From a virus (Duplodnaviria; Caudoviricetes), in the IMG/VR virus record IMGVR_UViG_3300031519_000140, positions 1-30,955 of that record: a DNA stretch of 30,955 nucleotides. The stretch is one strand, 5' to 3'. Below are positions 582 to 6,926 of the stretch, in pieces (positions within the stretch are counted from its first letter, which is position 1; each line of letters begins with the position of its first letter). Below the pieces are notes generated by a model, which ran no database searches, was not told where the DNA came from, and saw only the letters and a program-made list of their open reading frames with translations. Made by a program: the position numbers and the translations under genes.

Positions 582-771
582 TTCCCACCTCTCTTAGTTT
601 ACCTTTAAGTTTAACAACCTTGTCAAGATTGTACGTCATGAACCTAGTACCCTGCCGTATGGCTGTCTCATAGTTATCAATCTCTTCTTGTATCTTAGCC
701 CGTTCCTGAGACTCTGATAACTTTTGCTTAAGAGATTTATTCTTGAGCGTCTTGATCTGCATCTCTGTCAT
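571..771 (-). CDS. hypothetical coiled-coil protein (66 aa)
   Basis: ATGA overlap with upstream gene; GGAAGAGG RBS. Confidence 0.7.
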   Translation of the reverse strand: MTEMQIKTLKNKSLKQKLSESQERAKIQEEIDNYETAIRQGTRFMTYNLDKVVKLKGKLREVGNDN

Positions 772-1049
772 TCCTCTTCCTCCATAATATCATTGATTAG
801 TTTCTGTTGTAGCTGGTTGATAGCTATGAATAACATCTTATCATGTACGTGCCAAGCTATAGTGTTAGATGATCTGTGTATCAACTTAGCTATGTTATTG
901 TATGATACATTCATAGCCCGTAGACAGACGATCCTCTTTAAGTCAAGCTCAGAGATAGGATTATAGTTTGTCCTAGGCTGCTTGGCAAGCACTGATTTTG
1001 CAGGGACATTATAACTCTCCTTAATCTTAGGAACAAAGATGATACTCAT
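768..1049 (-). CDS. helix-turn-helix DNA-binding protein
   Basis: LRAMNVSYNNIAKLIHRSSNTIAWHV fits an HTH (SxxxIAxxLxRSxxTI) pattern; TAATG coupling. Confidence 0.65.
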   Translation of the reverse strand: MSIIFVPKIKESYNVPAKSVLAKQPRTNYNPISELDLKRIVCLRAMNVSYNNIAKLIHRSSNTIAWHVHDKMLFIAINQLQQKLINDIMEEEE

Positions 1050-2667: not shown

Positions 2668-2811
2668 TCAATCCTCTCTTAATAATTTATCTACAGCTAC
2701 ACCACATAGCACTGCTGCTATCAATGCTGCCATAGGATTGCCACTGAATAATGCTGCACCACAGAACCCTATGATCGCACCTATTGTAAACCTAACTAAT
2801 GTTTTACTCAT
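2668..2811 (-). CDS. small membrane protein (47 aa)
   Basis: Manual ORF MSKTLVRFTIGAIIGFCGAALFSGNPMAALIAAVLCGVAVDKLLRED; GGAGGT RBS; ATGA overlap. Confidence 0.75.
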   Translation of the reverse strand: MSKTLVRFTIGAIIGFCGAALFSGNPMAALIAAVLCGVAVDKLLRED

Positions 2812-3488
2812 GCTACCTCCTTCAATTTTATTAATTGATTCTCTTTATAAACTTTCTTAGCCATGCGACCATGAGCAGGATAGACAATCAACTCAACATC
2901 TTTATCCCAACATGATCGACAGGTATCACACTTACCATCTCTCTCGTATGCTAGACAGACCTCAATGTTTCCTAGGAAACTTACTGGTGTCTCTACATAG
3001 GGGACAATAGTGGAAGTAGTAGCCCCATCAACAAGTCCACCTGTAATACTATCACTGCTAAACCTAACAACAACATTGGGGAGTAAAGCCATTGCATCTA
3101 ACACCTCCTTATATTTATCAAACTTATACTGTCTAGTTGGGAACCAATGCTGACACCAAGGCGTAGCTTTCATGATAGCATACATCTTCCACGCCAGTTT
3201 AACTGTATAGCAGTCACCGCTATCGAACCAGCGAAAGTAACGCGAGTTATCTAGCTTGGCTATGAACTCAGGCACAAACTCAGGACGTTTCCAATCCTCC
3301 TTGTTATGTTGGCGTAGTGCCTTAACACTAGGCATCTGATAGAAGCCACCTCTTGCATAGCATATCTCACAAGCATCAACGACAGCACCAGTGATAATAT
3401 CTACAGCACCAGCACATGTAATCATAGCTTCTAGTGACCATGAAAAGCATGGCATCTTACTGGCTGCACTAAACTTTATACTACTCAT
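2808..3488 (-). CDS. GP88-family (radical-SAM-like, Cys-rich) protein
   Basis: KMP..SWSL.A..TC...C..CYA, FRWFDSGD and C-terminal KCDTCRSCW are motifs recalled for the gene product 88 family. Confidence 0.75.
   Translation of the reverse strand: MSSIKFSAASKMPCFSWSLEAMITCAGAVDIITGAVVDACEICYARGGFYQMPSVKALRQHNKEDWKRPEFVPEFIAKLDNSRYFRWFDSGDCYTVKLAWKMYAIMKATPWCQHWFPTRQYKFDKYKEVLDAMALLPNVVVRFSSDSITGGLVDGATTSTIVPYVETPVSFLGNIEVCLAYERDGKCDTCRSCWDKDVELIVYPAHGRMAKKVYKENQLIKLKEVA
2964..2982 (-). repeat. palindrome repeat copy 2 (19-bp core, inside CDS)
   Basis: AATGTTTCCTAGGAAACTT exact; read as SFLGNI in the GP88-like frame. Confidence 0.95.
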
Positions 3489-5042: not shown

Positions 5043-5489
5043 TTACTTGATAGCCTTATACTCTGCAACAATCGCCTCCAACTCTGCCAAGGTAAACGAA
5101 ATTTTATCGCTATCGACCCATGACATTATGGTCTCTCTCTTACTCTTACTTTGGTCGCCATAGACGGCATTACGGAATTGGGAATAGGTCTCGTGATCAA
5201 CGGCACTAACCCCATCTTTGAACGCTTTCTTGTGGGTGCTGCATACTTGTCTCACTGCCCCCGCTTTTTTCAACTGATCAGGACAACCGTCTTTGGTAGC
5301 TTTTGGGTATGCCTTGTCAATCATGGCCTTAATAATACCAGCCTGTACTTTATTCTCTAGGTCTACCGCGTCAGATTGTAATGCTTTGGCTAGTTCAAAC
5401 CTTGCATCACTGGTTTTGTCTTGTGCTTTTACTTGTGCCATTAGTGAGTTACCGATAGCGCGAACGTGATTGATAGTTAATGTATTCAT
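5043..5489 (-). CDS. first early gene, hypothetical protein (148 aa)
   Basis: AAGGT RBS; first ORF after the sigma54-type promoter. Confidence 0.8.
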   Translation of the reverse strand: MNTLTINHVRAIGNSLMAQVKAQDKTSDARFELAKALQSDAVDLENKVQAGIIKAMIDKAYPKATKDGCPDQLKKAGAVRQVCSTHKKAFKDGVSAVDHETYSQFRNAVYGDQSKSKRETIMSWVDSDKISFTLAELEAIVAEYKAIK

Positions 5490-5552
5490 GATCTATTACC
5501 TTTTAGGTTTAGTTATAATGAGTGGCGTTATGCCCTTGCTCGCTAATACTAA

Positions 5553-5569
5553 TGCAATAGCCGTGCCAA
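5553..5569 (-). promoter_or_regulatory. sigma54 (-24/-12) promoter, proximal
   Basis: Minus strand TTGGCACG-GCTA-TTGCA, a full match to TGGCACG-N4-TTGCW; predicted +1 near 5542, about 50 nt before ATG 5489. Confidence 0.75.
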
Positions 5570-5581
5570 CAATGGTAAACG

Positions 5582-5705
5582 TAGGCATAGCAAGGGATAG
5601 AGGCGATTTAGTAGGTTAAACAAATATCACTAACGCACCATAGTAGTGCAATAATATGACGTTATATTGACACTATTTGCTGATAGCTAGGCATAGCAAG
5701 GGATA
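5582..5705. repeat. 18-bp direct repeat TAGGCATAGCAAGGGATA (5582-5599, 5688-5705)
   Basis: Two exact copies 106 bp apart; an interrupted third copy at 5895-5918. Confidence 0.9.
5634..5650. promoter_or_regulatory. NtrC-type binding box 1
   Basis: CGCACCATAGTAGTGCA; 12/14 to TGCACCA-N3-TGGTGCA; centred about -100 from the proximal sigma54 start. Confidence 0.65.
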
Positions 5706-5711
5706 CAGGGA

Positions 5712-5749
5712 CGCACCATAATAGTGCTAGCTCGCACCATAGTAGTGCA
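5712..5749. promoter_or_regulatory. tandem NtrC-type boxes 2 and 3
   Basis: CGCACCATAATAGTGCT (5712-5728) and CGCACCATAGTAGTGCA (5733-5749), 21 bp apart. Confidence 0.65.
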
Positions 5750-5757
5750 ATTATCTT

Positions 5758-5774
5758 GGCAAGAATCGTGCCAA
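5758..5774 (-). promoter_or_regulatory. sigma54 (-24/-12) site, distal
   Basis: Minus strand TTGGCACG-ATTC-TTGCC. Confidence 0.65.
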
Positions 5775-5802
5775 TTTTACAACTATTAGTATTTATAGAC
5801 AA
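5774..5802 (-). promoter_or_regulatory. candidate sigma70 early promoter
   Basis: Minus strand TTGTCT-17bp-TAAAAT, directly abutting the distal sigma54 site. Confidence 0.45.
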
Positions 5803-6064
5803 TATTAGCCCATAATTGAGTATATTAGCAGATACTAATTATATCTTGTAAGCTCGTACAAGCTCGCACAAGCGTGATAGAAATAACAAATAGCTAGGCA
5901 TAGGCCTACTCAAGGGATCAACACAGACCAACACAGGCACATACAATTCATATTAGCATTGTCTAATGTGCTCATAATTTGCTCATAATATTCAGTATAT
6001 AGGGGAGCATTATTTCATGCTATGGGTACCTACATAGACATTCACACAGGCTATAGTGGGTGAT

Positions 6065-6119
6065 GCTACATTAGACTTTGCTACATTAGAGATTGCTACA
6101 TTAGTCTGAGCTACATTAG
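6065..6119. repeat. 4 x GCTACATTAG at exact 15-bp period
   Basis: Copies at 6065, 6080, 6095 and 6110 with variable 5-bp spacers; followed by a G-run near 6139-6145. Confidence 0.92.
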
Positions 6120-6348
6120 GGTGGTCTAATGAAGGGACGGGGGGGTAGCTGCGTAGGCTGGTGTGTAGGGGTACCTGCTTAGATACTAAAAAGAGTGAAT
6201 CTGACTAATTAATTACTATCACTAAGACTATGATTAATAAGCATTAAGTAATGTGTTCTGGGGAGTGAATAAAGGAGGGCTGCGGAGGGCATGTAAAAGC
6301 ATGTGAGTCCCGCCAATGCAGTCCTTAGTAGATAACTAAAAATAACTC

Positions 6349-6377
6349 TTGACTTTTGCTTGAAAGTATGCTATAGT
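6349..6377 (+). promoter_or_regulatory. sigma70 promoter of structural arm
   Basis: TTGACT-17bp-TATAGT with extended -10 TG. Confidence 0.75.
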
Positions 6378-6524: not shown

Positions 6525-6926
6525 ATGATTGTTGATCCAAAGGTTGTTGTTAAAGCGAAGCGTGGTCGTCCCCGCAAAGCAGACATAGCAGCCAAGAAGA
6601 AAGGGAACAGAAATGCTATCGGTAGACCTAAAGGGGATGCTGCTAGAATCAATGAACTCAAGGCTAGGTTGTTAGCTACGAGTGGTGATAAGGTTATCTC
6701 TAAGGTTATTGAAATAGCATTAGAAGATGGTCATCCTGTTCAATCAGCAGCACTAAAGATGTGCATGGATAGAGTGTTGCCTATCTCTTATTTTGATAAG
6801 AAGAATGACACTGGAGGTAGGAATGCAGTCTCTATTACTATCACTGGTGTTGGTGGTGATACTACAATTGTGGGCAACACAGGCAATGACGATGCCCTTG
6901 ACGGAGAGTATGAAGATGTCAATTAA
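6525..6926 (+). CDS. terS: putative terminase small subunit
   Basis: First late gene upstream of TerL; KRGRPRK and GRPKG basic motifs, acidic tail. Confidence 0.6.
   Translation: MIVDPKVVVKAKRGRPRKADIAAKKKGNRNAIGRPKGDAARINELKARLLATSGDKVISKVIEIALEDGHPVQSAALKMCMDRVLPISYFDKKNDTGGRNAVSITITGVGGDTTIVGNTGNDDALDGEYEDVN

Follow-up and report, generated by a model that had tools for sequence, protein, structure and literature searches.

An exchangeable sigma54 cassette with NtrC-type boxes ahead of the first early gene of a phage, a candidate host-activated promoter

Immediately ahead of the first early gene of a phage genome fragment lies a 279-bp cassette that holds two sigma54-type sites and three NtrC-type boxes. 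It is probable, in our view, that this cassette is a sigma54 early promoter that is activated by the NtrC protein of the host and has moved laterally between phage lineages. The argument draws on the sites themselves, on their conservation among carriers, and on the exchange of the cassette for a sigma70-like block in close relatives. Coordinates refer to the window, by which is meant the whole 30,955-nt stretch of DNA that was analyzed.

The Phage and Its Gene Layout

The window is a fragment with two divergent arms separated by a 1-kb gap. The minus arm begins with small ORFs of no assigned function and leads to a primase-helicase, the plus arm carries terminase, portal, capsid, and tail-fiber genes, and the cassette sits in the gap, directly ahead of the first minus-arm ORF. 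The product of that ORF found no family match in PHROGs, Pfam, or Atlas, and the early genes downstream of it have no evident nitrogen function by family searches. One of them (2808-3488, minus strand) encodes a GP88-family protein (E=2e-29). Another protein of the early region, 93 aa long (768-1049, minus strand), gives a weak helix-turn-helix signal (E=0.01, below the cut-off; Atlas scores <0.9) and may be a phage-encoded binder of the sites.

What kind of phage is this? PolA is present in all five near-complete relatives (34 to 38 kb), and the same five gave no match to a tyrosine integrase or to Sigma54_activat, the enhancer protein family, in searches whose controls were positive in 14 of 14 genomes. 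A preliminary description of this DNA had stated that no phage RNA polymerase lies between the promoter and the primase, and indeed the window has no ORF of that size there. Nor is there one in the part of G001, a complete relative carrying the cassette, that is absent from the window, where the longest ORFs measure 561 and 538 aa. A PF00940 search found 0 of the 5 relatives, a result that is uninformative alone since its control gave no signal. The gene content (PolA, primase-helicase, SSB, and exonuclease, with neither an integrase nor tape-measure-type tail genes) points to a lytic, podovirus-like phage lacking its own RNA polymerase, both morphology and lifestyle being read from genes alone.

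No close cultured relative was found (portal below 28% and PolA at most 46% identity), and INPHARED held no match to the cassette. At least 23 sequencing runs contain the stretch, most of them with labels such as seawater, marine, or brine, and the box types suggest a gammaproteobacterium in the wide sense as the host. GTDB-derived hosts were rejected, the six loci concerned lying in unrelated MAGs, five of them as short contigs in bins of unrelated groups that are likely mis-binned. The sixth, L160 (8188-21239), was also set aside as a host clue. Its long contig joins a related virion module (TerL 68%) to Burkholderiales DNA, no early region being present on that side, and the junction may be a prophage remnant or a mis-join.

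Sigma54 Sites and NtrC-Type Boxes

The sigma54 sites (TTGGCACGGCTATTGCA proximal and TTGGCACGATTCTTGCC distal to the first gene, both on the minus strand) and the three 17-bp boxes are exact matches, and all five fall within 222 bp (5553-5774) of the non-coding gap. They were present as quoted in the preliminary description and are the only ones in the window; the box centers that it gave, counted from an inferred start at 5542, are arithmetically right. It had also proposed scoring against shuffled sequence. Zero-mismatch matches number 2 for sigma54 and 3 for NtrC in the 30,955 bases, the shuffle means are 0.01 and 0.00, and none of 100 shuffles reached either count. Allowing one mismatch adds no site, and the counts are then reached by 2 (sigma54) and 3 (NtrC) of 100 shuffles. 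Chance or an assembly artefact was rejected as the origin of the block, identical contig pieces spanning it in three independent runs.

The sigma54 search pattern agrees with the -24/-12 description in the literature. That description, in the accessible text of PMC4987338, is accompanied by the statement that enhancers usually lie 80 to 150 bp upstream, a range beyond which the box pair at -178 and -199 falls. The boxes fit the NtrC consensus TGCACCAnnnTGGTGCA as given in the accessible text of PMC8743547.

The cassette also holds two copies of a 15-bp repeat (Table 1), of whose 30 columns 16 are invariant in 21 carriers. An IHF site between enhancer and promoter is a common, not universal, part of NtrC/sigma54 promoters. 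Such a role is not supported for the repeat, which is at least two letters off the IHF consensus, with critical letters that vary between carriers. An IHF-like match with one mismatch lies at 5673-5685, and by the same consensus the cassette has no convincing IHF site.

Table 1. Features of the gap and neighboring regions (window positions; a point marks features given no strand)
Feature	Position	Strand	Remarks
Sigma70-type match, 11/12, inside ORF, upstream of primase-helicase	960..988	-	
First early gene, 148 aa	5043..5489	-	From ORF list; no assigned function
Likely ribosome-binding site of first early gene	5495..5503	-	From sequence
Swappable sigma54/NtrC cassette, 279 bp	5521..5799	-	Between two shared flanks
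Inferred transcription start, 11-13 nt past -12 C	5541..5543	-	Sigma54 geometry; cassette similarity ends about here
Proximal sigma54 -24/-12 site, likely working promoter	5553..5569	-	Exact in 25/25 distinct carriers, fixed distance
15-bp repeat, copy 1, about -40 to -54	5582..5596	-	Expected place of DNA-bending site
Proximal NtrC-type box, center -100	5634..5650	.	Exact in 24/25 carriers; one mismatch in the other
AT-rich 20-mer, non-box anchor	5654..5673	.	Invariant in 10 aligned sequences
15-bp repeat, copy 2	5688..5702	-	Between box pair and proximal box
NtrC-type box, center -178	5712..5728	.	Exact in 23/23 carriers reaching it; paired with next, 21-bp spacing
NtrC-type box, center -199	5733..5749	.	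Exact in 21/22 carriers reaching it
Distal sigma54 site	5758..5774	-	Exact in 21/21 carriers reaching it; offset -100 to -169 from anchor
TATAAT without clear -35	5838..5843	-	Kept in both alleles; in all 8 distinct matching stretches, one identical to window
Skeleton motif B (GTGTG..GGTACC)	6025..6047	-	Possible inner edge of terminal repeat
Skeleton motif A and C-run, kept across clade	6137..6192	-	Possible packaging or terminus signal
Sigma70-type promoter match, 10/12, extended -10	6349..6377	+	Toward terS and virion genes
Likely small terminase subunit (terS)	6525..6926	+	Position ahead of terL; family search without match

Conservation among Carriers

Carriers of the cassette were fetched with a 20-mer that lies outside any box and was chosen from an alignment, in order to avoid selecting on the boxes themselves. 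The search returned 10 viral and 23 metagenome loci, of which 9 duplicates were dropped (one of them identical to the window), leaving 25 distinct versions, window included, 21 of them full-length. In every version the proximal sigma54 site is exact and lies 105 to 106 nt from the anchor. Box-to-promoter distances are fixed, shifting by at most 1 nt, and the proximal box is centered at -100 or -101 in all carriers; the position of the distal sigma54 site shifts by up to 69 bp.

Among the 21 full-length versions, 33 of 36 columns in the NtrC arms and all 9 in the sigma54 core are invariant, against 0 of 9 in the centers of the NtrC boxes, 0 of 6 at the variable sigma54 positions, and 29 of 105 in the background (the Fisher p of 2e-14 is overstated, because carrier sequences share ancestry and columns are not independent). 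Similarity between distant carriers stops some 5 to 10 nt past the -12 element, as expected for a promoter that was moved without its gene. All 25 versions have an ATG at +40 to +56, accompanied by a purine-rich stretch, and the first genes are of about five kinds as judged by eye. These patterns support the view that the boxes and sigma54 sites behave like selected protein-binding sites set in a fixed promoter geometry.

A Promoter Slot with Exchangeable Alleles

Relatives of the phage were fetched by TerL (best 80 of 600) and TerS (best 80 of 351), giving 153 loci. The block is present in two close ones (L003, L084) and absent from L082, L085, L090, and L091 (TerL 97 to 99%) and from L083 (TerS 96%). 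Conservation in relatives, which the preliminary description had named as a check, is seen in the 25 carriers and is lacking in most close relatives, in the manner of a mobile allele. What stands in its place? In L083 and L090 the flanks are common and, with sharp junctions, the 279 bp are swapped for 110 bp containing TTGACT-17-TAATCT (8/12 by eye), a sigma70-like allele that is followed by the window's own first gene at 86% and 93% identity, respectively. L014 and L100, on a branch outside (TerL 82 to 83%), share the left junction and then have a sigma70-like block with TTGACT-16-TACAAT. This makes the sigma70-like state look like the older one in this lineage.

The same cassette, 75 to 85% identical, is carried ahead of other genes by distant phages whose TerS is 42 to 47% and whose partial TerL is 64 to 75% identical, with homology spanning about 5523/5550-5779. 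In a quick TerL tree (85 of 88 rows, 170 N-terminal residues, with long branches for the partial rows L307 and L337), the window's three carriers form a group with eight non-carriers (96% SH-aLRT), outside which all other carriers fall. Because the slot is swapped in close relatives and the cassette is common to distant phages, we infer lateral transfer of a promoter module. One contig joint in run X1 skips 5494-5799 at a depth of 56, versus about 110 for the cassette form; with 88% likeness and 30 letters on its short side, it is probably a related strain. Eight relatives without the cassette (L005, L006, L007, L085, L091, L097, L098, and L111) have, about 150 nt ahead of their first early gene, a common leader with complementary ends, which looks like a structured RNA.

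The NtrC and Sigma54 Composite in Bacteria and Other Viruses

A composite pattern (an NtrC box, 50 to 80 nt, and a sigma54 site) occurs in 3 of 401 Pseudomonadota genomes, twice ahead of glnA (L382, L383) and once ahead of a LysR-family gene. In IMG/VR the forward arrangement is found in 73 stretches (39 families) and the reversed one in 33 stretches (23 families). As 43 of the 73 match the window's proteins, its clade supplies most of the viral cases under this pattern. The box-to-promoter distances of the IMG/VR composites have no helical phasing (p=0.16); given this and the count of 39 versus 23 families, the orientation bias is modest across viruses, whereas it is strict within the cassette.

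Some units point elsewhere, toward terS and virion genes or both ways from one box set (the L283, L293, and L315 groups; L275, L281, and L319). In others (L289, L292, L276, L335, L282, L288, and L302), an NtrC and sigma54 unit stands ahead of the first ORFs of viral contigs whose fetched flanks gave no match to the window's proteins. Other phage groups may thus use the same design.

Host-Type Boxes and Genome Ends in the Clade

Is the gap special in other respects? From the 153 loci and the window, collected without motif selection, the 96 with at least 950 nt upstream of terS gave 66 clusters and 52.8 kb of gap sequence. The box patterns for DnaA, Fur, LexA, IHF, and Zur were chosen after being seen in the data, a point to be kept in mind with the following counts, each given with its shuffled expectation: DnaA, 65 sites in 19 clusters (7.2); Fur, 17 in 13 (0.2); LexA, 19 in 15 (2.7); IHF, 33 in 30 (7.2); and Zur-like, 18 in 14 (1.4). 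NtrC boxes number 13 in 6 of the 66 clusters (0.1), and sigma54 sites 28 facing the early genes in 13 clusters and 12 facing the late genes in 6 (0.1). The CRP, FNR, and PhoB patterns showed no enrichment in these gaps. Of the six clusters with NtrC boxes, the window's alone places an exact sigma54 site downstream, where a canonical promoter would have it. In L148 the exact site lies upstream and the downstream site has one mismatch, and the remaining four clusters have none.

These host-type boxes come in several arrangements. Arrays of two to six DnaA-type boxes lie just past the C-run in L025, L036, L040, L045, L058, L064, L107, L146, L148, L150, and L153; they might imitate an origin, soak up DnaA, or protect the genome end. 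Fur-type boxes, often paired, occur in L003, L013, L014, L084, L090, L096, L127, L128, and others; in L003 and L084 they stand together with the NtrC cassette, and the window has none. Zur-like, LexA-type, or TAGACT boxes are found in L113, L122, L127, L128, L131, L135, L138, L146, L151, L153, and others, the TAGACT-type palindrome amounting to 30 sites in 18 clusters versus 0.5 in shuffles. Six relatives (L130, L132, L133, L134, L142, and L147) lack NtrC boxes and pack between four and seven sigma54-type sites into about 170 bp, arranged in tandem or facing both ways.

Two related skeleton motifs, A with its C-run and B, lie about 105 to 370 bp apart in the clade and may constitute a packaging signal that bounds a terminal repeat. 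Their automated placing worked in 26 of the 66 clusters, the window's coordinates being placed separately, and in those 26 the interval between A and B holds 19 of 20 DnaA sites and 6 of 9 early-facing sigma54 sites. The window's cassette lies outside this interval, at least 225 bp inward of motif B. Read depth at the presumed terminal repeat is contradictory across four DNA runs: it is flat in X1, and in X2 it rises over 6063-6199. Motif A was placed in 19 contigs, of which 3 stop at motif B. An IHF-like match lies at 6223-6235, and many relatives have an IHF-type site on the terS side of the skeleton motifs. Between the motifs, the window has four CTAATGTA repeats with a 15-bp period (6064-6119), and related CTAATAT repeats lie further inward (5801-5956); repeats of the CTAATGTA type amount to 29 sites in nine clusters of the window's lineage, versus 2.8 shuffled. 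We read the gaps of the clade as holding two things, landing pads near the terminus and a promoter slot ahead of the first gene, the latter apparently filled in the window by the NtrC/sigma54 cassette.

Proposed Mechanism and Alternatives

How would the cassette work? Host sigma54 holoenzyme would bind at 5553-5569 as a closed complex and wait there. The three boxes (-100, -178, and -199) would hold phosphorylated host NtrC, which would reach the complex by looping and open it; RNA would start near 5542, and the small early genes would be expressed. Early transcription would then increase when the NtrB/NtrC system of the host reports a lack of nitrogen. Since the phage's relatives encode neither enhancer protein nor RNA polymerase, the host would have to supply both. 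The gain, a speculative one, might be access to a form of polymerase that keeps working in marine cells starved of nitrogen. In the absence of its activator a sigma54 promoter is fully off, and for that reason it is a natural part for a hard gate on a first operon. The opening of closed sigma54 complexes by phosphorylated NtrC is established for bacteria (PMC4987338, accessible text). The preliminary description had proposed such control by host NtrC, with both sigma54 sites pointing into the early genes. Selected sites in fixed geometry, the swap with a sigma70-like block, the lack of a phage enhancer protein match, and the glnA composite all speak for the proposal. It needs narrowing, however, in that the proximal sigma54 site alone keeps a set distance from the boxes. 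The distal site is a candidate second promoter, roadblock, or reserve site, and in the proposed mechanism it would serve as roadblock or reserve and leave the main start to the proximal site.

Would this be a strict gate, or a boost over a weak upstream sigma70 start? Either would fit the mechanism, and a gate may leak. The TATAAT at 5838-5843 is a possible NtrC-independent upstream promoter, and the 11/12 match at 988-960, whose conservation is uninformative because it lies inside coding sequence, could serve the primase, so that NtrC control of replication is not implied. As these two may give NtrC-independent transcription, either of the earlier wordings, that infection "starts" or that it "is boosted" under nitrogen limitation, may hold. 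A further sigma70 match (9/12, 5802-5774) ends on the distal sigma54 site. Contigs from four of the six RNA runs include a 153-nt one from X17 (8 differences) that covers 5403-5541 plus three unaligned letters at the predicted +1, a single contig from one study and of a kind of data that cannot show starts, so that we do not count it as evidence; no contig of those four runs covers 5545-6203.

Could the sites bind host NtrC and sigma54 holoenzyme with no useful transcription following? They would then be a landing pad or decoy, either shielding or anchoring the entering DNA end or titrating host regulators once the genome is amplified. The clade lends this some weight through the enrichment of DnaA, Fur, LexA, IHF, and Zur-like boxes in the same gap, through the existence of NtrC boxes without sigma54 sites and of sigma54 arrays in both orientations, and through the crowding of DnaA and early-facing sigma54 sites between the skeleton motifs. 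The window's cassette, however, stands well inward of motif B and directly ahead of the first gene, replaces a sigma70-like block, is rigid in its spacing, and stops at the inferred +1, none of which a decoy requires, and we regard this explanation as unlikely here. The tandem and two-way sigma54 arrays, together with forward units that face terS, do count against a simple promoter reading. So do the single canonical layout among six NtrC clusters, the common reversed arrangement and absent helical phasing in IMG/VR, the box pair beyond the usual enhancer range, the want of a convincing IHF site, the possible NtrC-independent starts, and early genes with no evident nitrogen function. A broader and tentative idea is one that is possible and that we would not expect to hold: the clade may keep a pool of interchangeable early-promoter or genome-end cassettes, each reading a host state (nitrogen by NtrC/sigma54, iron by Fur, zinc by Zur, DNA damage by LexA, and replication by DnaA). 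The window's allele would be an obligate nitrogen gate, leaving the genome silent until NtrC is phosphorylated, and coexisting alleles would hedge one population across nutrient states.

There are two further explanations. The cassette might be a real sigma54 promoter that in practice senses no nitrogen, either because another enhancer protein uses an NtrC-like box or because NtrC is nearly always phosphorylated in an oligotrophic host, in which case it would simply be a strong early promoter. Sigma70-like and sigma54 alleles serve the same gene, and one of the three bacterial composite matches is not at glnA, both of which leave room for this; yet the boxes match the NtrC 17-mer down to its free 3-nt center and the other two matches are at glnA, which makes it a distinctly doubtful account. 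An inverse switch, or lytic deferment, appears very improbable. Here bound sigma54 holoenzyme and NtrC would block a sigma70 transcript from near 5831 and so hold back the early genes in some nitrogen states. The upstream TATAAT kept in both alleles and the 9/12 match ending at the distal sigma54 site would suit it, as would precedents in accessible text, namely the repression of RpoD promoters by RpoN holoenzyme (PMC8743547) and the phi29/Spo0A model of repression by a host factor (PMC9437464). Against it, the proximal site has activator geometry, the leader length is constant in every one of the 25 carriers, and the upstream flank is not common to most distant carriers.

Relation to Known Systems

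As a putative host-NtrC-activated promoter, the cassette resembles the glnA-type NtrC/sigma54 promoters of Proteobacteria (accessible text of PMC8743547 and PMC4987338) in its -24/-12 site, its 17-bp boxes with one about 100 bp upstream, and the gene directly downstream. It differs in lying in a phage ahead of small early genes of no assigned function, in having three boxes that reach as far as -199, a further sigma54 site upstream, and no clear IHF site, and in moving between lineages as an allele; its activity is predicted from sequence.

Phages are already known to co-opt host regulators. Host PhoB/PhoR control of genes in cyanophage S-PM2d (PMC10976474, accessible text) is likewise a case of a lytic phage with a host nutrient two-component regulator acting on phage promoters. 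That system concerns phosphate, an OmpR-type regulator, and selected genes, and was shown by EMSA and RNA-seq; for the cassette, the nutrient would be nitrogen, the regulator an enhancer protein working with sigma54, and the target the first operon of all. Host regulator sites concentrated between divergent arms or in terminal repeats are also on record for CtrA in alphaproteobacterial phages ("lytic deferment"), Spo0A in phi29, and LexA in temperate phages (PMC9437464, accessible text). The regulators there are different, and the geometry of the cassette suggests activation, with alleles that are swapped; neither NtrC nor sigma54 occurs in the accessible text of that article. Closer in one respect is Pseudomonas phage YuA, which lacks its own RNA polymerase and has a sigma54-like promoter, P015 (bioRxiv 10.1101/2023.10.13.562163), though the phages are unrelated and the accessible text names no activator or NtrC box for P015. 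For the window's clade, host-type sites are enriched in non-coding control regions and no cognate regulator was found in phage relatives, as would be expected of co-option of host regulators.

Is the arrangement new? The preliminary description gave such control as not known to have been described for lytic podoviruses. Sigma54 promoters in a lytic phage were already described for YuA (10.1101/2023.10.13.562163, accessible text), and the co-option of PhoB, CtrA, and Spo0A is published; the part that may be new is the NtrC link. No NtrC-driven phage promoter was found in the literature searched, which was mostly without subscription papers and supplements, and promoter tables of phage genomes could hold such sites.

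Little is settled about the ways in which lytic phages sense starved hosts or live with them, and the cassette would offer a nitrogen counterpart to the use of PhoB. Nitrogen limits much of the ocean. The clade also provides a natural control, since one and the same first gene stands behind a sigma54/NtrC allele in some phages and a sigma70-like allele in others, and the two apparently coexist in one sample. The cassette would also be a case of non-coding regulatory DNA that moves between phage lineages as a module.

A Repeated Palindromic Element

The window contains one further repeated feature, an element of about 20 bp in eight near-identical copies (at 1346, 2964, 3577, 4175, 4398, 4691, 5024, and 28637) that holds a perfect 14-bp palindrome (GTTTCCTAGGAAAC). 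Five copies lie just ahead of a ribosome-binding site and one lies inside an ORF, and the centers vary in relatives. The element may be an RNA hairpin, a site for a phage regulator, or a gene-shuffling site.
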